A stretch of DNA of 51,277 bases from a virus (IMGVR_UViG_2851955134_000001), one strand, 5' to 3'. Positions 1 to 48,182 are shown, counted from the stretch's first letter. Numbers and translations are program-made. Notes: generated by a model from the letters alone, not told the origin.

Positions 1-576
1 TCACCATCCAACCCTGTACGCCAGAATGGTTTCACTGTCACTCAGTTCTGCTATTGCCTTTTTCATCTCCCTTTGCCTTATATGTATTTCAAGGCCTTTC
101 CTGAACATCGCTTTACCAGCAGCATCACTCAGGGATATCAGTTCATCTGCCGTCATCGGTACATCATTATTCTCTGCGTCCGTCCAGAAAAATCCTTCCG
201 GCAACACACCGCCTCTGGCCGCTGATGCCGACATTCCAAGACGTGTCATGGTTTCCTTTCCATAATCCCATTTCCGTCCTCTGTGCTCAAAAACATACCC
301 TGACGCCTCCATCGCATCACGCCAGGCATTTATCTCCGCGTTTTTCATCCTGCGTGCTTCTTCCACAGCCATATCATCATTTGCCCGGTACTCACCTACC
401 GGCCCTGCATCACCTCTTATGCAGGCTTCAAATATTTCACGACCGTAAGACTCAGGATCATCCGCACTTGCTGTAAATACACATTCTGTTTCCGCGTCTG
501 AAAACTTCACTATACAGTTTATGGTCGTATGACCCCTGTCAGCCCACACTGGTGACGTGATTTTATCGACCTTCAT
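1..576 (-). CDS. tail fibre assembly protein (Tfa-like); start at 576, 3' end runs off the window
   Basis: ORF open to position 1; ATG at 576 preceded by GGGGAG RBS; lies 15 bp downstream of stf as in lambda stf-tfa; Tfa-like from recalled lambda Tfa. Confidence 0.6.
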   Translation of the reverse strand: MKVDKITSPVWADRGHTTINCIVKFSDAETECVFTASADDPESYGREIFEACIRGDAGPVGEYRANDDMAVEEARRMKNAEINAWRDAMEASGYVFEHRGRKWDYGKETMTRLGMSASAARGGVLPEGFFWTDAENNDVPMTADELISLSDAAGKAMFRKGLEIHIRQREMKKAIAELSDSETILAYRVGW

Positions 577-591
577 TCATTTCTCCCCCTG

Positions 592-2325
592 TCACAGTAT
601 TCTCTGAAACAGGCCCCAAATCGTCCCACTGATATTATTCACCGCCATGTTAGTTGTGCATAACATCCATGTACCAAGCATAGGATTGCCAAATAAAAAG
701 CGGATATCTGTAAGTTTATCCGATGACGACGACACAATAACGGCCTGTCTGATACGATACCCGGGTATTTGACGGGTATTTGTTATCTCATGATTTCGTT
801 CTATGATCCCCAGAACATAAGACCCCACGGAATAAACACTTCCGACGCTCGCTGGCCGCCCCGCTTCTCCTCTTGGCCCCTGTGGACCTGCCGGACCGCG
901 TTCACCTGTATACCCTCTTGGCCCCTGTAGACCTGCCGGGCCGCGTGCTCCTGTATCCCCCTTTAGTCCCTGTGGACCTGCCGGGCCGCGTTCACCTGTT
1001 TCACCTTTTGGTCCCTGTGGACCTGCCGGGCCACGTTCACCTGTATCGCCCTTTGGTCCCTGTGGACCTGTCGGGCCACGTGCTCCTGTTTCACCTTTTG
1101 GTCCCTGTGGACCTGCCGGGCCGCGTGCTCCTGTATCCCCCTTTAGTCCCTGTGGACCTGCCGGGCCGCGTGCTCCTGTATCCCCCTTTAGTCCCTGTGG
1201 ACCTGCCGGACCGCGTTCACCTGTATCCCCCTTTAGTCCCTGTGGACCTGCCGGGCCACGTTCACCTGTATCGCCCTTTGGTCCCTGTGGACCTGCCGGG
1301 CCACGTTCACCTGTATCGCCCTTTGGTCCCTGTGGACCTGTCGGGCCACGTTCACCTGTTTCACCTTTTGGTCCCTGTGGACCTGCCGGGCCGCGTTCAC
1401 CTGTTTCACCTTTTGGTCCCTGTGGACCTCCCGGATCTCCTTTATCCCCCTTAGGGCCTTTTTCTCCTCGCTCACCCTTTTCTCCCTTCAGACCCTGAGG
1501 GCCTTCCGGACCACGTGCACCTGTTTCGCCCTTTGCTCCCTGTGGACCTGCCGGGCCGCGTTCACCTGTTTCACCTTTTGCTCCCTGTGGACCTTCCGGA
1601 CCACGTGCACCTGTTTCGCCTTTTGGTCCCTGTGGACCTGCCGGGCCGCGTTCACCTGTATCGCCCTTTGGTCCCTGTGGACCTGCCGGACCGCGTTCAC
1701 CTGTTTCACCTTTTGGTCCCTGTGGACCTGCCGGGCCGCGTTCACCTGTATCGCCCTTTGGTCCCTGTGGACCTGCCGGACCGCGTTCACCTGTTTCACC
1801 TTTTGGTCCCTGTGGACCTGCCGGGCCACGTGCTCCTGTTTCACCTTTTGGCCCCTGTGGCCCGGTAATGCCTCTTTCACCACGAGCGCCGGTATCCCCT
1901 TTCTCTCCTCGTGGTCCCCGGGCAGATGCTGCTCGCTTCCGGGCTTCCTCCGCCTCAGATGCCGCGGACTCTGCTCTGTGCAGTATGGACTGCACCACAG
2001 CCTCCAGCTCTGACAACGCCTTCGGATAATAAGCAGCATCTTCCATCTCCATCAGAAATTTATTCAGTGTTCCCGGTGAAGAATCCTCCCTGACCACGAT
2101 ATCTCCCACATACGAAGGACGGTAACCTTCTGTATTGAGTGTCACCCTGTATATTCCTGGCTCCACATCCATACTGTAACTCCCCGTCTCTTCCGGCATG
2201 CCATAAGCCACTGTCGTGGCGATGACTGTCTCGCTGGTTCTCTTCGCTTTCAGCTCAATAATGCATCCCGGTACCGGTTTTCCGGTTCCGTCCCTGAGCA
2301 CGCCTGAAATTTTTACAGCCGCCAT
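592..2325 (-). CDS. side tail fibre protein (Stf-like) with long collagen-like Gly-X-Y repeat region
   Basis: N-terminus [18 protein letters not shown] resembles recalled lambda Stf N-terminus; about 340 aa of GPxGPxGxxGxRG repeats; ATG at 2325. Confidence 0.8.
865..1870. repeat. tandem ~45-bp coding repeats (collagen-like GxY units) inside stf
   Basis: Visible periodic reiteration of cctgtggacctgccgggccgcgttcacctgt... units; all six frames stay open across the array. Confidence 0.85.
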
Positions 2326-2458
2326 ACTCGCTCCACAAATAAAAATAATCCCGCAAAATTGCGGGCGTCGTCATTCATTTACAATCGGGTGTTTTTATGA
2401 TTACTGTAACCGGCTCATTTAAACCGTCTGGTCTGTTTCCTCCGGCTCTACAAAAATA

Positions 2459-3136
2459 ATGTCCATCATTTTTAATGGACACTATCGTATGAAACACCGG
2501 ACCTGGATCACTGAAGCTTTACGTCTTCACTTTGAAGAACATTTACCCCGGGTTGTGGCCGGGCGTCGCCTGGGTGTACCAAAATCAACAGTTTGCAGTA
2601 TGTTCGTGCGCTTTCGGAGAGCTGGCCTTTCGTGGCCTTTGCCCGCAGGCATGTCGGAGCAGGAACTTGATGCCTGCCTTTACGGACAATTTTCCACGGT
2701 ACCAGTCGTACGTCCTGAAAGCACCGTTATATCCGAAGCCCCCGTGGTAAAAAAACGTCCCCGGCGGCCCAACTTCCCTTATGAGTTTAAAATCGCCTTA
2801 GTGGAACAGTCACTGCAGCCCGGAGCCTGTGTGGCGCAGATCGCCCGGGAAAACGGAATCAACGATAACCTGCTCTTCAACTGGCGCCATCAATACCGGA
2901 AAGGTGGCCTGCTGCCTTCCGGAAAAAATATGCCGGCACTGCTTCCCGTGACGTTAACGCCGGAGCCGGATAATAAAATCCCGGCTCCGGCACAGGAACC
3001 AGAGCAGATAAATACACCGTCCGACAGTCTGTGTTGTGAGCTGGTTCTGCCGGCCGGAACTCTCAGGCTTAAAGGTAAACTGACGCCGGCGTTATTACAG
3101 ACACTTATCCGCGAAATAAAAGGGAGCAGCCACTGA
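2459..3136 (+). CDS. IS66-family accessory protein TnpA (start may be the internal ATG at 2489)
   Basis: First ORF of the IS; stop overlaps the tnpB start (ATGA at 3136). Confidence 0.65.
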   Translation: MSIIFNGHYRMKHRTWITEALRLHFEEHLPRVVAGRRLGVPKSTVCSMFVRFRRAGLSWPLPAGMSEQELDACLYGQFSTVPVVRPESTVISEAPVVKKRPRRPNFPYEFKIALVEQSLQPGACVAQIARENGINDNLLFNWRHQYRKGGLLPSGKNMPALLPVTLTPEPDNKIPAPAQEPEQINTPSDSLCCELVLPAGTLRLKGKLTPALLQTLIREIKGSSH

Positions 3137-3483
3137 TGATATCTCTCCCTGCAGGTTCGCGTATCTGGCTGGTTGCCGGTATCACCGATATGCGAAATGG
3201 CTTTAACGGCCTGGCCTCAAAAGTTCAGAACGTCCTGAAGGATGACCCGTTCTCCGGACACCTGTTCATCTTCCGCGGACGCCGGGGTGACCAGATAAAA
3301 GTGTTGTGGGCTGACAGTGACGGACTGTGCCTCTTCACCAAACGCCTGGAGCGGGGCCGCTTCGTCTGGCCGGTTACCCGTGACGGCAAGGTGCACCTTA
3401 CTCCGGCTCAGTTATCTATGCTTCTTGAAGGTATCAACTGGAAGCACCCGAAACGAACGGAACGCGCTGGCATTCGCATATAA
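3136..3483 (+). CDS. IS66-family TnpB (Orf2)
   Basis: 115 aa with sequence MISLPAGSRIWLVAGITDMRNGFNGL... characteristic of IS66 Orf2, as recalled. Confidence 0.85.
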   Translation: MISLPAGSRIWLVAGITDMRNGFNGLASKVQNVLKDDPFSGHLFIFRGRRGDQIKVLWADSDGLCLFTKRLERGRFVWPVTRDGKVHLTPAQLSMLLEGINWKHPKRTERAGIRI

Positions 3484-3502
3484 CCCGTTGTAAAGTGAGG
3501 AT

Positions 3503-5074
3503 ATGGACACCTCACTTGCTCATGAGAATGCCCGCCTGCGGGCACTGTTGCAGACGCAACAGGACACCATCCGCCAGATGGCGAAATACAACCGCCTGCT
3601 CTCACAGCGGGTGGCGGCTTATGCTTCCGAAATCAACCGGCTGAAGGCGCTGGTTGCGAAACTGCAACGTATGCAGTTCGGTAAAAGCTCAGAAAAACTT
3701 CGTGCAAAAACCGAACGGCAGATACAGGAAGCACAGGAGCGAATCAGCGCACTTCAGGAAGAAATGGCGGAAACGCTGGGTGAGCAATATGACCCGGTAC
3801 TGCCATCCGCCCTGCGCCAGTCTTCAGCCCGTAAACCGTTACCGGCCTCACTTCCCCGTGAAACCCGGGTTATCCGGCCGGAAGAGGAATGCTGTCCTGC
3901 CTGTGGTGGTGAACTCAGTTCTCTGGGATGTGATGTGTCAGAGCAACTGGAGCTTATCAGCAGCGCCTTTAAGGTTATCGAAACACAACGTCCGAAACTG
4001 GCCTGTTGCCGGTGCGACCATATCGTGCAGGCACCGGTGCCTTCAAAACCCATTGCACGCAGTTATGCCGGAGCGGGGCTCCTGGCCCATGTCGTCACCG
4101 GAAAATATGCAGACCATCTGCCGTTATACCGCCAGTCAGAGATATACCGCCGTCAGGGTGTGGAGCTGAGCCGTGCCACACTGGGGCGCTGGACTGGTGC
4201 CGTTGCTGAACTACTGGAGCCGCTGTATGACGTCCTGCGCCAGTATGTGCTGATGCCCGGTAAAGTCCATGCTGATGATATCCCCGTCCCGGTCCAGGAG
4301 CCGGGCAGCGGTAAAACCCGGACAGCCCGGCTGTGGGTCTACGTCCGTGATGACCGTAACGCCGGTTCACAGATGCCCCCGGCGGTCTGGTTCGCGTACA
4401 GTCCGGACCGGAAAGGTATCCATCCACAAAATCACCTGGCCGGTTACAGCGGTGTGCTTCAGGCCGATGCTTACGGTGGTTACCGGGCGTTATACGAATC
4501 CGGCAGAATAACGGAAGCCGCGTGTATGGCTCATGCCCGGAGAAAAATCCACGATGTGCATGCAAGAGCGCCCACCGACATCACCACGGAAGCCCTGCAG
4601 CGTATCGGTGAACTGTATGCCATCGAGGCAGAGGTCCGGGGCTGTTCAGCAGAACAGCGTCTGGCGGCAAGAAAAACCAGAGCCGCGCCACTGATGCAGT
4701 CACTGTATGACTGGATACAGCAACAGATGAAAACACTGTCGCGTCACTCAGATACGGCAAAAGCGTTCGCATACCTGCTGAAACAGTGGGATGCACTGAA
4801 CGTGTACTGCAGTAATGGCTGGGTGGAAATCGACAACAACATCGCAGAGAACGCCTTACGGGGAGTGGCCGTAGGCCGGAAAAACTGGCTCTTCGCGGGT
4901 TCCGACAGCGGTGGCGAACATGCGGCGGTGTTGTACTCGCTGATCGGCACATGCCGTCTGAACAATGTGGAGCCAGAAAAATGGCTGCGTTACGTTATTG
5001 AGCATATTCAGGACTGGCCGGCAAACCGGGTACGCGATCTGTTGCCCTGGAAAGTTGATCTGAGCTCTCAGTAA
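3503..5074 (+). CDS. IS66-family transposase (TnpC)
   Basis: 523 aa; N-terminal leucine-zipper-like region, CxxC zinc motif and C-terminal region typical of IS66 transposases. Confidence 0.9.
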
Positions 5075-5107
5075 ATATCAATACGGTTCTGACGAGCCGC
5101 TTACTGA

Positions 5108-5353
5108 TTACTTCACGCACGAAACTTTCGTAAACATATCTTCACTCACCCACTGACCATAAAATCTCGGAGCTGATACTTTATACACAGTGCCGCTTTT
5201 CGTTTCTATTTTCCCTGTAAGATCTACCGTATAAGCTCGCTGTAAAACCCCGGGACTCAGCACACCGGTGCACCGGACTCTCTCCGTAACGGAACTGTAC
5301 CCCGCGCAACCTGATACAAGAAACAGCAAAAAAGTGCAGACGATTATTTTCAT
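5108..5353 (-). CDS. small lipoprotein downstream of tail genes; possibly Cor-like superinfection exclusion protein
   Basis: Signal peptide with lipobox LVSGC; 81 aa; the position after the J/tail region matches where cor sits in phi80/HK022-type phages. Confidence 0.45.
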   Translation of the reverse strand: MKIIVCTFLLFLVSGCAGYSSVTERVRCTGVLSPGVLQRAYTVDLTGKIETKSGTVYKVSAPRFYGQWVSEDMFTKVSCVK

Positions 5354-5374
5354 TACATGCCCTCAACATAACTA

Positions 5375-6037
5375 TCAGTACGCATCATAAATTTCTGCAT
5401 TTATGTAATAACAGAGGTTATTAACAACACCTGAATTATCATTGGGCGCCGCTACGTTATCTTCAGCAAAAGTTGACTGACGCCATAACTGTGAGTTTCT
5501 GGCATTAAAACTGGCGGTATACCAGTAATAACTCTCCCCTTCCTGAACTGTCGTCCACTGGGTACACCCCGGCATTACGGCCACATCATGTCCCACACTG
5601 ATCGGTACATCCTTTTCCCATATTCGCGTCATTTTTACTTCCAGTGGCAGCATTTCCGTGTTCCAGACCACCCTGCCATGACTGTCGCACAACTGTATTC
5701 CCCATTGCGGCCATACATTCACCATGTTGGCAAAAACATAAACAACATATGTGCTGTCCTGTTCCATGCCCGGCTCCTGCCCTGTACCAGCGCTGAAAAT
5801 GTCATACTGCCAGGTACCGTTAAGCTGAACCATTTCACCATGGAAGGACTGATTACCGCTTATCTGTTTAATAAAAATCACGCAACGATAATTCGTCGGC
5901 ACCCCGGTGTCGATAAACTGCATCACCGCATCACGCGCACTCAGTGTGAAATGAAAACGGCGCACAAGGTTCAGTGGCGGCGCAACAGGTGATATCCATT
6001 CTCTCCCCCGCTCATCAGTTAATTTAAGTGCAAACAT
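5375..6037 (-). CDS. hypothetical phage protein in the tail tip region
   Basis: ATG at 6037 with AAGGGGGA RBS; 220 aa; no recognisable motif. Confidence 0.5.
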   Translation of the reverse strand: MFALKLTDERGREWISPVAPPLNLVRRFHFTLSARDAVMQFIDTGVPTNYRCVIFIKQISGNQSFHGEMVQLNGTWQYDIFSAGTGQEPGMEQDSTYVVYVFANMVNVWPQWGIQLCDSHGRVVWNTEMLPLEVKMTRIWEKDVPISVGHDVAVMPGCTQWTTVQEGESYYWYTASFNARNSQLWRQSTFAEDNVAAPNDNSGVVNNLCYYINAEIYDAY

Positions 6038-6297
6038 CAGATCCCCCTTATCATGACCAGCACGGGTCTTAGCCAGCTTGTGTTGGCATAGTGCACTGTC
6101 CAGCCGGATACACTGGCACTGGTATGACTTCCCTGACCGTTAATCAGAATGGCCGGTGAACAGACTTCCAGACGCCAGCCCTGCAAAGGAGTATAAGAAC
6201 GCTGCCCCGTCCCTTCAGTGATCACATCCAGCACCCCTGTTGGGTTTATTTCATGTGTCACAAGGCGCCCTTTGCGCCATACCCGGACTCCGAACAT
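6037..6297 (-). CDS. hypothetical small protein translationally coupled to J
   Basis: ATG overlaps the J stop (TAATG); GGGGAG RBS inside the J 3' end. Confidence 0.4.
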   Translation of the reverse strand: MFGVRVWRKGRLVTHEINPTGVLDVITEGTGQRSYTPLQGWRLEVCSPAILINGQGSHTSASVSGWTVHYANTSWLRPVLVMIRGI

Positions 6298-9200
6298 TAC
6301 AGTCTCCCCAGTCGTACTCTTAACACATTGTTATCGTCATATACGTCGATTCGCTCGCCATTGAAAAACAGGCGGCCTGCGCCGGGCCTTCCTGAGTTAA
6401 TTTCAAGGCTGCCGTTTCTTGATAAACGCCACCCCGGACTACCGGAATGAAAATTATCTGACCGGATATCTCCCGTCACTCTGGCAAAATCCACGGTCAG
6501 TTTTTTCATGAAAACATCATTCATGAACAGCTGATCACCCTGAGCCACAAACAAAGGTGTTGTATTGCCATTTTCCGGGTTAATCATCGCAATACGATCT
6601 GCCTGCATCAGGATCTGACTCTGAATTCCGTCAGACGTATTTTCGATTCCGGCACCAATACCTGCAATATAGAGACGTCCATCCCGTGTCTGCTGCAGCT
6701 TCACAGCCCACATGCTGTTCAGGTTCCGGCGCGTGTCCTCCTGAACTTTCTGTATCTGCTCAATGCTGGCATTCCAGGATCCCAGTTTTTTATCCGTGCT
6801 CTGTGTGATCTGACTTCCCTTATCATCAACATACTGTCTGATCTGCGCTATCTGTCGGCTGTTCTCCTCCGTGCTCCTGCTTACTGTCTGCCGGATTTCG
6901 CTGCCCATCCTGTCAACTTTTCTGTCAACTTCCGCAATGGCCATTGACTGTTCAGCGCTCTTTTTCGCCACAACAGTACTTATTTGCGCACTTTTATCAT
7001 CAACATACTGCCTGACCTGCGCTATCTGTCGGCTGTTCTCCTCCGTGCTCCTGCTTACTGTCTGCCGGATTTCACTGCTCACGCTGTCAACTTTCCTGTC
7101 GACTTTCGCAATGGCCAGCGACTGTTCACCGCTCTTTTTCGCCACAACAGTACTTATTTGCGCACTTTTATCATCAACATACTGCCTGACCTGCGCTATC
7201 TGTCGGCTGTTCTCCTCCGTGCTCCTGCTTACTGTCTGCCGGATTTCACTGCTCACGCTGTCAACTTTCCTGTCGACTTTCGCAATGGCCAGCGACTGTT
7301 CACCGCTCTTTTTCGCCACCAGTTCCGTTATGCTGTTTTCAGACGCCGTGATTTTTTTCGTCACCTCTGCGATATCACGCTCCGCACGCTGCCTCACATC
7401 TTTCTCCAACTGCGTCATTTCGCGGTTAATCGCATTCTCCAGCTGCGTCATTTCGCGGTTAATCGCATTCTCCAGTTGCTCAACTTCAGTGCGCCGTGCA
7501 GAGGCATCAATGCGTTCATTGATCTCCCGTCCCAGATGCGTTTTATTTATCGCCCCCCTGAAAAAATTAAGGTAACCGGCAGGATCATTACTCGCCCGAC
7601 CGACTGCCTCCACGAATGCCGATTTACCGACAGTGTTAACACTGCGGATATAAAAGTAATAATCATGGCCAGGCTTAATATTCTGGCCGGAGACAAGCCA
7701 CTGAGTTCCGGTACCAAGATAACGGGCTGTGGTTTCAACCTGCCTGATATCGGTAATCCGCTTTTCCGAAAACCAGAACTCAAACTGCACCGTCGGATCA
7801 TAAACGGCAAGATGCGGCGTGGCGGTTATCTGAAAATAGCCCGGCGTCAGCTCAATCCGCGACGGCGCTGCCGGTGCGGCAATCCGGAACGATACCGACG
7901 CCGGGTCTCCCTGCTGCCCCCGGGCATTTACTGCCCGGACTGTCAGCCTGTAGTTCCCCGGCGCCAGCTGCCTGAAGCGGTATGTGGTTTCCGTCGTCCG
8001 GGCCGTGCTGACCAGCCGCTCACTGCCGTCATCCGCTGCCACGGTCAGGCGAAGCATGAAACTCACGCCTTTCACCACCTTCGGCGTGTCCCAGCGGGCC
8101 AGTACCTGATACTCCCCGCTGTCTGCGGTGACTTCGACAGTCAGGTGCTGCACTGCTGGCGGCGTGACACCATTCACCGTGCCGCTCTGGTCACCGTCAA
8201 AGTGTGCCCCGTTATCCACGATGCCCTCTTTTTCCGGTACATGCTGCACGGCAGTGATGGCATACGTGCCGTCGTCGTTCTCACGGATACTCACGCAGCG
8301 GAACAGGCGCTGGCGCAGCGTCGGCAGCTTCAGCCCCCACACGCTGTACTCGGCAACGCCGTCAGGAACCCGGCTCACTTTTACCTTCACGCCGTCGGTG
8401 ACGGACTGAACCTCCACGCTGACCGGATTGCCACTTCCGTCAACCAGGCTTATCAGCGTGGTACCGGAGGATGGCAGCGTGATTTCACGGTCGAGCGTCA
8501 GCGTCCGGGTCTGGCTGTTCACCGCCAGCACACGACCACCGGTGCTGATACCGGCATAGTCATCATCACAGATTTCAATGACATCGCCCGGTACATGGCG
8601 AAGCCCTTCAGCACCCACGCTGAAATCCACGGTCTGCGTCTCCAGCAGTTCTGTTTTAATCAGCCACAGCCCGGCGCGGTGTGCCTGCCCCCGGCTGGTA
8701 CAGCCAAAGGCATCCATCTTCGTGACGTTACGACCGTAACGGGCAATGGCCTGCGTATCTTCAACAAGCTCTGTCGCCGTCTCCTGGCCGTTATCCGGGT
8801 CACTCCAGTTCACCTCAACGGCATTATGGCGGTCCTTCAGGGCGCTGAAGCTGTAGCGGAACGGCGCGCCATCATCCGGCATCACCACATTACTGCGGTT
8901 ATAGGTCCACACCTTATCCGACGGTCGGTCCTGCACGAACGTCAGCGTCTGCCCGTTCCATACCGGCATACAGCGCATCGCCGAGCAGAAATCACTGAGC
9001 ACATCCCACGCCTTACGCTGTGTGGTCAGCCAGGCATTACAGGTGATGCGCGGCTCCGTGCCGCCAAAGCCGTCCGGCACTGACTGGTCGCAGTACTGGC
9101 CGATGACATACAGCGCCCATTTATCCACATCCGCTGCGCCAACACGTTTCCCCATGCCGTAGCGCGGATGGGTCAGCATATCCCACAGACACCAGGCCGG

Positions 9201-10013
9201 GTTGTTGCTGTATGCCGGTTTAAACGTTCCGTCCCAGATACCGCTGTATTGCCGCGTCTGCGGGTTATAGTTCGACGGCACCTGCAGAATGCGCCCGCGC
9301 AGATGATAATTACGGCTCACCTGCTGGCTGCCGAACTGCTCCGAATCCACCTGCACACCGACCAGTGCCGTGTTCGGGTAGCACTGTTTCACATCGATAA
9401 TTTCGGTGTATGACGACCAGAGCGTTTTGTTCTGCAGCTGGTCTGTGGTGCTGTCCGGCGTCATCCTGCGCATCCGGATACTGAACGGGCGCGGCGGCAG
9501 GTTATCCACCACCACCGAAGCCAGATACTGCGAGGTGGTTTTTCCCTTAATGGTGATGTCTTTTTCCGTTAACCAGCGACCGTTACGCTGTATCTGAACC
9601 AGCAGGCGGACTTCCGACGGATTCCGGTCCCCCTTTGAGGTGGTTTCCACCAGTGCCTGCACACCGAAGGTCAGGCGCAGACGGTCGATGTTTGCCGATG
9701 TGATGGTCCGGGTAATCGGCGTGTCGTACTTCACTTCCGTACCCAGCACCGTCTCGGAGCCGGAGGATTCAAATCCCTCCGGCGGCGTCTGCTCCTGCTC
9801 ACCGGCCCGGAATACCACCGTGACGCCGGATATATTGGTATTCCCCTCACTGTCCAGCACCGGCGTACCGTTCAGCAGCACGCTTTTTAATCCATCCACC
9901 GGTCCTTGTATCGGCCCTTCGCTGATGACATCGATCACACTCAGCAACTGCGTGGACTTCAGGTTGTCCTTCGCTTCGCGCGGGGTATGCCCCTTACTGC
10001 TGCCTTTACCCAT
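6297..10013 (-). CDS. J: tail tip / host specificity protein J with divergent C-terminal region
   Basis: First ~1000 aa closely match recalled lambda gpJ ([24 protein letters not shown]...); C-terminal part contains a coiled-coil repeat insertion and a short divergent end. Confidence 0.9.
6795..7320. repeat. three tandem ~174/177-bp repeats inside J (58-aa coiled-coil units)
   Basis: gctatctgtcggctgttctcctccgtgctcctgcttactgtctgccggatttc recurs at 6847, 7021 and 7198; a shorter 30-bp duplication follows at 7421/7451. Confidence 0.85.
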
Positions 10014-33338: not shown

Positions 33339-34160
33339 CTATCGCGTTACCCTCTTCAACTGCCGCTCCGCCCATGACTCTTCAATGTCAAACCGAACCA
33401 CCAGCGTATCGTAAAAACGCTTCACTGATTTTTTCCACGTATCAAGAGTGATAGCGCTCGTCACTTTGCATATGGCATTAAACGCCTCTGTTGACGGTAA
33501 TCTTTCATAGCCACGACCACCACAACGCTGGCAGTCTCTGATAACAGGCATACCACGTTTTACCGACTCTTCACGATGAATGGCGACACCACGCCCACGG
33601 CAATCATTACAGGCGGTGGAGACCTCACCCTTTCCCCCGCATTCAGGACAGGCAACTTTTACCACTTCCCGGACTTTTTTCCATTCTTCCCAGTAAGACG
33701 GATACACACCCTTTGTACACTTTGCCCATACCGGCGGTTTACCATCCGGATACTGGACCTTGTTTGTAAAAACTACGCTTTCAATAAATTTTTTCCCACC
33801 GCAACAAGGGCACTGTTTTTTACTCGCTGCACTACGGGCATAATCCTCAAAAGCGTACGAAGCCATAATGCGCATCACTGTCGGTTTTATTTCTGCCGGA
33901 AGTTTTCTCAACGCCGCCACGCGATCGCACCGACTGAGTGCATAATCTGCCAGTAATTCTGTTGCCCGCGTTCTGTCATTCATACTGATGCCCATTTTCC
34001 CCAGGAACGCAGAAAATCCCATCTCAGCCCGGTTTTGTGTCATACCCTGCGCAGCCATCACATCAGTGATGCTCAGCGCATCTTTTGACGTCGAGACGGA
34101 TGCATCAGTCAGGCCTGGCGATTTTGGGGAATAGTATTTCGGTAAATCTTCCAGTTTCAT
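33339..34160 (-). CDS. putative late antiterminator Q with DnaJ-like CxxCxGxG zinc-finger repeats
   Basis: Positioned between rusA and the pR'/tR' signals; contains CPCCGGKK, CPECGGKG, CNDCRGRG and CQRCGGRG motifs. Confidence 0.5.
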   Translation of the reverse strand: MKLEDLPKYYSPKSPGLTDASVSTSKDALSITDVMAAQGMTQNRAEMGFSAFLGKMGISMNDRTRATELLADYALSRCDRVAALRKLPAEIKPTVMRIMASYAFEDYARSAASKKQCPCCGGKKFIESVVFTNKVQYPDGKPPVWAKCTKGVYPSYWEEWKKVREVVKVACPECGGKGEVSTACNDCRGRGVAIHREESVKRGMPVIRDCQRCGGRGYERLPSTEAFNAICKVTSAITLDTWKKSVKRFYDTLVVRFDIEESWAERQLKRVTR

Positions 34161-46953: not shown

Positions 46954-47157
46954 ATGAGCAGCTTATTTTTAACCGAAGATGAATTGCTAATATTAACGGG
47001 CTGCAAATATGCAAGCCACCAGCGAAAATGGTTAATGGAAAACGGGCTTCCGTTCTATACCAATCGTAGTGGCAAACCGATTGTCAGCCGGGATCTATTT
47101 ACCTGCAATAAAACTTTACCACCACGCGAGGTAGAGCCGAATTTTGGTGCGATCTGA
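46954..47157 (+). CDS. excisionase-like protein
   Basis: 67 aa; stop overlaps the int start (TGATG); immediately upstream of int. Confidence 0.55.
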   Translation: MSSLFLTEDELLILTGCKYASHQRKWLMENGLPFYTNRSGKPIVSRDLFTCNKTLPPREVEPNFGAI

Positions 47158-48182
47158 TGGGAAGACGAAGGAAAAATCCTGAACACGAAAAATTACCTCC
47201 AAATGTATACCCAAATAAATATAGTTATGTATGGAAACCAACATCCAGAGAATCTGTAACACTAACCGCCATCAAGGATGGTTTAGCTGCTTTATGGAAA
47301 AAGTATGAGGAAACTGTAAATAATCGCGATCGTGCAATGACATTCGGTCGCTTGTGGGAAAAATTCCTCGCCAGCGCCTGTTACAGTGACCTTAGTCCAA
47401 GAACACAAAAAGATTATCTGCAACATCAAAAAAAGTTGCTTGCCGTATTCGGTAAGGTACCAGCGGATTCCATAAAACCAGAACACATCCGTCGATACAT
47501 GGACAAAAGAGGGGAACAGAGTAAAACGCAAGCCAACCATGAAAAAAGCAGTATGTCCCGTGTTTACAGTTGGGGGTATGAGCGAGGGTACGTGAAGGCT
47601 AACCCATGTGCAGGTGTAAGTAAATTCAAGGCCAAAAACCGCGAACGATATGTAACCGACAAAGAATACCAGGCAGTATTAAGCGTGGCACCCCTTCCTG
47701 TTTTTATCGCAATGGAAATTGCCTATCTGTGTGCAGCGAGGGTTTCCGATGTGTTATCGCTGAAATGGGAGCAGATTGGAAACGACGGGATCTTTATCCA
47801 GCAAGGGAAAACAGGGAAAAAACAGATAAAAGCATGGAGTCCACGATTACAGGCAGCGGTCGAAAAAGCAAAACAGTTACCAAAATCCGCCTATGTGATC
47901 AGCAATCAATACGGCAACCGATATATGTACAAAGGCTTTAACGAAATGTGGGTAGAAGCAAGAAATCGCGCAGGCAAAGTTTCAGGTATTTTAACCGACT
48001 TCACCTTTCATGATCTGAAGGCGAAAGGAATTTCAGACTATGAAGGAAGCAGCCGGGATAAGCAACTTTTCTCTGGTCACAAAACCGAAGGGCAAGTGCT
48101 AATCTATGACCGGAAGGTTAAAGTTTCACCAACACTTGATGTCCCGTTACCTGAAAATATTCCAAGAAAATATTCCAAGTAA
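47157..48182 (+). CDS. tyrosine integrase (lambda Int-like)
   Basis: N-terminus MGRRRKNPEHEKLPPNVY like lambda Int MGRRRSHERRDLPPNLY; C-terminal ...FHDLKAKG... and LIYDRK Tyr region; adjacent to a tRNA. Confidence 0.85.
   Translation: MGRRRKNPEHEKLPPNVYPNKYSYVWKPTSRESVTLTAIKDGLAALWKKYEETVNNRDRAMTFGRLWEKFLASACYSDLSPRTQKDYLQHQKKLLAVFGKVPADSIKPEHIRRYMDKRGEQSKTQANHEKSSMSRVYSWGYERGYVKANPCAGVSKFKAKNRERYVTDKEYQAVLSVAPLPVFIAMEIAYLCAARVSDVLSLKWEQIGNDGIFIQQGKTGKKQIKAWSPRLQAAVEKAKQLPKSAYVISNQYGNRYMYKGFNEMWVEARNRAGKVSGILTDFTFHDLKAKGISDYEGSSRDKQLFSGHKTEGQVLIYDRKVKVSPTLDVPLPENIPRKYSK

Follow-up and report, generated by a model that had tools for sequence, protein, structure and literature searches.

A lambda-like prophage of Escherichia coli carries, in the spacer between a Cor-like lipoprotein gene and the side tail fibre gene stf, a complete ISCro1-type insertion sequence of the IS66 family, and we propose that this element lowers the expression of stf and its neighbour tfa mildly, or at most moderately, rather than abolishing it. 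In the explanation that we prefer, an intact ISCro1-type element (tnpA, tnpB, tnpC) has transposed into this spacer and duplicated the target TGATTACT. During lytic growth, stf-tfa would still be transcribed from the Q-dependent late promoter ~31 kb upstream, with Q-modified RNA polymerase expected to ignore terminators and to read through the 2.7-kb insertion. Taken as a whole, from transposition to Q-mediated read-through and its mild effect on stf-tfa, we assign this explanation a probability of about 0.62.

The window, that is the whole stretch of 51,277 nucleotides that was analysed, consists almost entirely of this prophage. Its integrase gene (47157-48182) adjoins tRNA-Ser(cga), and the prophage is lambda-like and integrated at tRNA-Ser (serU) in E. 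coli. All late genes lie on the minus strand, in the order Q, endolysin/Rz, nu1, the head and tail genes to J, stf and tfa (Table 1), which is the layout of a lambdoid Q-dependent late operon, with Q upstream, a single coding strand, and J and stf-tfa last. Each late gene from nu1 to J is an intact open reading frame, and the structural region is ~93% identical to those of phage 21, lambda-named and other lambdoid coliphages. Downstream of J are three small genes with products of 86, 220 and 81 amino acids; sensitive blastn against 50,697 phage records gave no nucleotide match to this three-gene module. The tfa-like gene at the distal end has the same length (576 nt) as in relatives. A second insertion sequence, an IS5 copy with a TTAA duplication (26318-27512), lies in this operon as well, after the lysis genes and before nu1.

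Table 1. Features of the inserted element and of the prophage late genes, positions counted from the first nucleotide of the window.
Feature	Position	Strand	Evidence or remark
tfa-like tail-fibre assembly gene (DUF4376), 191 aa, intact	1..576	-	Pfam PF14301; PHROG 1141
stf, side tail fibre with collagen-like repeats, 577 aa, intact	592..2325	-	Pfam phage_tail_N E 3.1e-40 (from residue 3), Collagen; PHROG 366
Native terminator-like hairpin, CCCGCAATTTTGCGGG then AUUAUUUUUAUUU	2350..2365	-	on the stf side of the IS, before the stf ribosome-binding site; retained in the centroid fold
Left target-site duplication copy, TGATTACT	2398..2405	.	single copy in IS-free relatives
Complete ISCro1-type IS66-family IS, 2699 bp	2406..5104	+	identity to PGAP-named copies
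IRL, GTAACCGGCTCATTTAAACCGT	2406..2427	+	inverted-repeat detection; 17/22 identical to IRR
tnpA, accessory protein with helix-turn-helix domain, 225 aa	2459..3136	+	NF038385 295.8 bits (cut-off 150); Pfam HTH_Tnp_1
tnpB, IS66 accessory protein, 115 aa	3136..3483	+	PF05717 E 4.7e-40; NF033819 128.9 bits (cut-off 50)
tnpC, DDE transposase, 523 aa	3503..5074	+	PF13007, PF13005, PF03050, PF13817; NF033517 480.5 bits (cut-off 180)
IRR, GTAAGCGGCTCGTCAGAACCGT when read inward	5083..5104	-	inverted-repeat detection and alignment
Right target-site duplication copy, contains the lipoprotein-gene TAA (5110..5108)	5105..5112	.	direct reading
81-aa lipoprotein gene, Cor-like, CDS intact	5108..5353	-	PHROG 1119 'Cor superinfection exclusion protein' E 8.6e-7
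J, last of the head and tail genes	6297-10013	-	
nu1	24961-25470	-	late operon
Endolysin and Rz	29762-30753	-	late operon
Q-like late-gene antiterminator, head of the late operon	33339..34160	-	PHROG 127 E 1.3e-111

The boundaries of the element can be read directly from the DNA: the insertion sequence proper is an intact ISCro1-type element of the IS66 family that occupies 2406-5104 (2699 bp), and the octamer TGATTACT flanks it at 2398-2405 and 5105-5112 with an 8/8 match. The octamer has only these two copies on the plus strand of the 51-kb window, and the chance of an 8/8 identity at one fixed pair of positions is ~1.5e-5. A sequence-only reading of this DNA had assigned the interval 2398-5112 to an IS66-family element with a perfect 8-bp target duplication; that interval comprises the insertion sequence plus both 8-bp repeats, and the perfect duplication is confirmed. 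The ends were also checked for inverted repeats, and these are present as well: they are 22 nt long and imperfect (17/22 identical), both starting with GTAA. Imperfect inverted repeats of ~15-30 bp with a 5'-GTAA start, and an 8-bp target-site duplication are features of IS66 elements, and both were found here.

With respect to the phage genes, the insertion sequence is separated by 3 bp from the stop codon of the Cor-like gene and by 80 bp from the stf ATG that follows, and its tnp genes run antisense to the late genes. It leaves every phage coding sequence, ribosome-binding site and start codon undamaged. Direct reading agrees with the earlier placement of the stf ATG at 2325 and of the element within the stf leader, and with the claim that the duplicated target holds the stop codon of the lipoprotein gene, the TAA being on the minus strand inside the right-hand repeat. 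The element also physically separates stf-tfa from the remaining late operon, as had been stated.

The assignment to the IS66 family, likewise made from the sequence alone, holds: TnpA, TnpB and TnpC match their models far above the curated cut-offs (Table 1). The tnpA stop and the tnpB start overlap by 1 nt (TGATG), and 19 nt lie between the tnpB stop codon and the tnpC ATG, so that the genes have the IS66 arrangement of a tnpA-tnpB overlap, a short gap and then tnpC. According to Pfam, TnpC contains leucine-zipper (LZ_Tnp_IS66), zinc-finger (zf-IS66), DDE and C-terminal (IS66_C) domains, and PF03050 aligns to it from profile position 1 to 283 of 284 (E 2e-104). Every structural defining feature of the family that was tested is present, and the element is an IS66-family member; the family-level definitions used for this are general knowledge together with the Pfam and NCBIfam models. 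Three full-length open reading frames and intact ends make it plausible that this copy is active in transposition. The more specific name ISCro1 is suggested by near-identity (99.0-99.8%) to copies that bear it in PGAP annotation. The closest copy is found in E. coli TUM9757 (99.8% nucleotide identity), and many chromosomal and plasmid copies in E. coli, called 'IS66-like element ISCro1 family' by PGAP, are 99.0% identical. Such elements are common, with a copy covering at least 80% of the element in 1,492 of 5,426 complete E. coli genomes.

Comparison with relatives that lack the element, proposed earlier as a check, was carried out and gave a clear picture of the empty site. In the related prophages of E. 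coli TUM1886 and GF60 the two flanks are joined through a single TGATTACT, and an uninterrupted site with one octamer in two IS-free relatives proves a simple transposition. LH50-c has the IS-free site as well. The ends of 14 further ISCro1 insertions, all independent, were compared, and 13 of these copies are uninterrupted. A perfect 8-bp duplication accompanies all of the 14 except one, where it is 9 bp, and each of the 13 uninterrupted copies is exactly 2699 bp long with identical terminal bases. A chance repeat or an assembly artefact in place of a real transposition finds encouragement only in the general possibility of mis-assembly at multicopy insertion sequences, and it is set against a perfect duplication of the length typical for ISCro1 (13/14 other copies), exact ends common to all other copies, and empty sites in relatives that join precisely via one repeat copy; we regard it as negligible.

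Searches with the junctions in the 5,426 complete E. coli genomes returned no match covering at least 80% of either one, and the insertion is therefore private to the source strain. The closely related strain E. coli TUM9803 has a prophage of this kind integrated at this tRNA-Ser, in which the cor-like/stf site is uninterrupted, and its chromosomal flank beside the prophage is 100% identical to that in the window, an IS1 included. Taken together, the sequence comparisons show a genuine, simple and recent transposition that is confined to the source strain. A preference for a particular target had been considered on account of the T-rich flanks of the top junction matches. That ranking itself selects for flank similarity, and eight copies ranked by identity of the insertion sequence, their flanks disregarded, had no target consensus; since this sample is unbiased, the idea was dropped.

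The label given to the gene on the right-hand side of the element stands in part. The 81-aa product begins with MKIIVCTFLLFLVSGC and has the lipobox LVSG|C, i.e. it is a small secreted lipoprotein (~75-80 aa in Cor proteins) with a signal peptide and a lipobox cysteine, and it matches PHROG 1119. The Cor family model of NCBIfam (NF047972) gave 28.7 bits, below its cut-off of 31, and the unannotated PHROG 27799 outscores PHROG 1119. Judged by these matches, the protein may be a distant Cor-like exclusion protein; 'cor-like' is then a fair, if weak, label for a candidate member of the family.

How the insertion acts on stf-tfa depends on how these genes are normally reached. On the minus strand of the IS-free spacer, ~40 nt after the Cor-like stop codon, there is a terminator-like hairpin (CCCGCAAUUUUGCGGG then AUUAUUUUUAUUU), which is conserved in IS-free relatives. 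Hairpin and U-tract (2365..2350) end ~12 nt before the Shine-Dalgarno sequence of stf (GGAG). Standard and lenient scans found no promoter-like site between the hairpin or the insertion sequence and stf, nor one directed outward from IRL. A terminator-like hairpin before stf with no promoter after it implies that stf-tfa is normally reached only by terminator-resistant transcription, and we infer that in the ancestral arrangement this would be Q-modified polymerase coming from the late promoter.

The same reasoning leads us to expect that the insertion sequence is largely read through, because the native hairpin already needs antitermination and the Q gene is apparently full length: residues 1-273 of the 273-aa Q-like protein align to positions 1-252 of 253 in the PHROG 127 profile. 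Antitermination by this protein is assumed by analogy with lambda, 21 and 82. Q suppresses polarity, and Q complexes resist both intrinsic and Rho-dependent termination (PMC12360218). Two properties of the element count against a mild effect, namely a best terminator-like site on its antisense strand at 3003..2980 (about -18 kcal/mol, z -2.5) and the 2.7 kb of untranslated antisense RNA, on which Rho can act well. Q-modified polymerase would read through efficiently, though not necessarily completely, and some loss of stf-tfa transcript is plausible. It had been claimed from the sequence alone that the element probably reduces or abolishes side tail fibre expression; this is likely an overstatement, although some reduction is possible. 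In the prophage state, any transcript of the Cor-like gene would be expected to extend antisense into tnpC, because the insertion sequence separates the gene from its own terminator.

A more severe outcome is that late transcription ends inside the antisense element, so that stf and tfa are silenced and particles are formed that are viable without side tail fibres. We hold this to be possible, and appreciably less probable than read-through. The minus strand of the element has further terminator-like hairpins besides the one at 3003..2980 (3475..3460, 4121..4109 and 4532..4515), and it contains 25-34 stop codons per reading frame in all three frames, so that the antisense RNA is untranslated and open to Rho. 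There is also a precedent in the afa promoter region, where ISCro1 lowered downstream transcription by ~2.5 log2 (PMC8764528). In lambda, stf and tfa are non-essential and dispensable for plaque formation (PMC10695390), so that the prophage would stay viable either way, and ISCro1 copies within stf or tfa are tolerated in related prophages. The afa locus differs from the prophage in that no antitermination operates at the insertion site there. Against silencing stands the resistance of Q-modified polymerase to terminators and to Rho, including the polarity suppression described for lambda Q (PMC12360218). The IS-free layout, moreover, already has a terminator directly before stf, so that the transcription that arrives there is antiterminated, and stf and tfa are both full-length open reading frames with no sign of decay.

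The opposite possibility, that the left end of the element supplies an outward or hybrid promoter from which stf-tfa would be expressed without Q, for instance in the lysogen, is in our view very improbable. Other insertion sequences are known to carry such promoters (PMC8764528), but a standard scan of 2200-5500 detected no sigma-70-like site on either strand, and a lenient scan gave only two 8/12 matches. The match inside the element faces stf, yet it sits upstream of the native terminator. At afa, too, ISCro1 lowered expression rather than raising it (PMC8764528).

The read-through that we favour likens the window prophage, by inference from the lambda paradigm, to lambda itself, where a polar element within the Q-dependent late unit is read through; PMC12360218 cites Forbes and Herskowitz 1982 for this suppression of polarity by lambda Q. 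Lambda PaPa, cited in PMC10695390 as a case of natural side-tail-fibre loss by an stf frameshift, is comparable in that the module affected is again the dispensable stf-tfa, distal in the late operon, on which viability does not depend. It differs in that its stf coding sequence is broken, whereas stf and tfa in the window are intact and only the spacer upstream of them is interrupted. The prophage offers a natural test case of a Q-type antiterminator against the polarity of a 2.7-kb insertion sequence in a wild prophage. For annotation, the late genes are all apparently intact, and the insertion sequence alone is no ground for scoring the prophage as defective.

The stf-tfa module has also been hit by ISCro1, independently, in related prophages. 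In ECCNB12-2 the element is inside stf (equivalent to 2099-2106 of the window) with IS1414 nested in it, in GF60 and TUM9803 it is in tfa (equivalent to 455 and 167, respectively), and in F1022 it is just downstream of tfa. The cor-like/stf junction occurs in only ~9 complete genomes. It seems doubtful that the stf-tfa end of this rare prophage family is a preferred or selected landing zone for ISCro1; if it were, the element might favour targets there, or lysogens might be under selection to switch off or adjust the making of side tail fibres. The recurrent insertions may instead reflect only the tolerance of a dispensable region in strains that are rich in insertion sequences. The insertion in the window places its source strain in an E. 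coli lineage rich in ISCro1, and the two junctions are a strain-specific marker. Beyond this and the annotation its significance is small: it is an ordinary event, a known element at a new position in an ordinary lambdoid prophage.

ISCro1 was named from Citrobacter rodentium ICC168. In that genome it is the most expanded insertion sequence, with 24 copies (PMC3072379). The window copy is like the PGAP-named E. coli copies in its length of 2699 bp, its ends, its tnpA-tnpB-tnpC layout and its 8-bp duplication, and it differs from them in insertion site only and in nothing structural. The length given for the copy in strain EC958 is 2,824 bp (PMC8764528), as compared to 2699 bp for the 13 uninterrupted copies analysed here. 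An exact search with 40 nt of the left end, in one genome per species, returned Escherichia sp. MOD1-EC7003, with many matches at contig ends, and two MAG contigs; C. rodentium was not returned by this search, to which we attach little weight given that it required an exact match.

Other enterobacterial members of the family are similar in architecture. The comparison with IS679 and its enterobacterial IS66-family relatives reportedly goes back to work published in 2001, and IS679, ISEc8 and ISEc22/23 are said to have, like the element in the window, tnpA, tnpB and tnpC, imperfect inverted repeats with an initial GTAA, target duplications of 8 bp and a length of ~2.4-2.7 kb. IS679 and its kin differ from it at the sequence level, and PGAP separates the IS679 and ISCro1 families; an example of the IS679 family in H87 is ~92% identical at the right end.

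Between the Cor-like lipoprotein gene and the side tail fibre gene stf, a native hairpin followed by a U-tract is kept in related prophages whose junction is free of ISCro1. For the Cor-like gene it is a moron-style terminator, and expression of stf requires that late transcription pass through it. The lipoprotein itself, an 81-aa product, belongs to a three-gene module lying between the tail gene J and stf, whose 220-aa product is a 'membrane associated protein' (PHROG 425). The module was found only in a few E. coli prophages, in which PGAP left the lipoprotein ORF unannotated, and no nucleotide match to it was present among 50,697 deposited phage genomes.

The junction of the cor-like gene and stf is itself rare, being present in only about 9 of 5,426 complete E. 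coli genomes. Independent ISCro1 insertions were also seen in the stf-tfa module of related prophages, and the copy of ECCNB12-2 carries an IS1414 nested within it. The recurrence of ISCro1 in stf-tfa suggests a hot spot, tolerance of insertions in a dispensable region, or selection.

Features of the prophage and of related prophages (L-numbers denote loci extracted from other genomes; other positions are those of the window)
Feature	Position	Strand	Remarks
ISCro1, ECCNB12-2	L001:2514-6535		inside stf; target duplication ATATCTCC
ISCro1, GF60	L002, IRL adjoining window-equivalent 455		in tfa
ISCro1, TUM9803	L017:49146, window-equivalent 167		in tfa, position differs from GF60
ISCro1, F1022	L020, about 300 bp past tfa		just downstream of tfa
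Native terminator-like hairpin and U-tract	2337-2365	-	immediately adjoins stf ribosome-binding site
Three-gene module, J to stf	5108-6297		products of 86, 220 and 81 aa
Complete IS5 copy, 1195 bp	26318-27512		within 26314-27516
IS5 transposase, 326 aa	26464-27444	-	

Collagen-like G-X-Y repeats make up about 370 aa of the stf product (592-2325), the length of which varies from 442 to 604 aa across relatives. In the C-terminal third of J (6297-10013), a unit of about 59 aa occurs three times in tandem.

A second insertion sequence, IS5, lies within the Q-dependent late operon, upstream of every head and tail gene. This copy, inserted between the small terminase gene and the lysis cassette, ends in GGAAGGTGCGAATAAG inverted repeats and has a 4-bp TTAA duplication on both sides.

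Beyond these prophages, the exact 40-nt left end of ISCro1 sits at the termini of about 30 draft contigs of Escherichia sp. MOD1-EC7003 (L021-L053), which indicates a large expansion of the element and an assembly broken by its copies. The same exact end was found on a stand-alone 2699-bp contig and on a 2749-bp contig from two gut MAGs, a Clostridiales bin and a Segatella copri bin, most likely due to mis-binning. Finally, the direct repeats that flank one ISCro1 copy in E. coli N96 (L008:about 3017-5720) are 9 bp long, AAGTTAATG, rather than the usual 8 bp.
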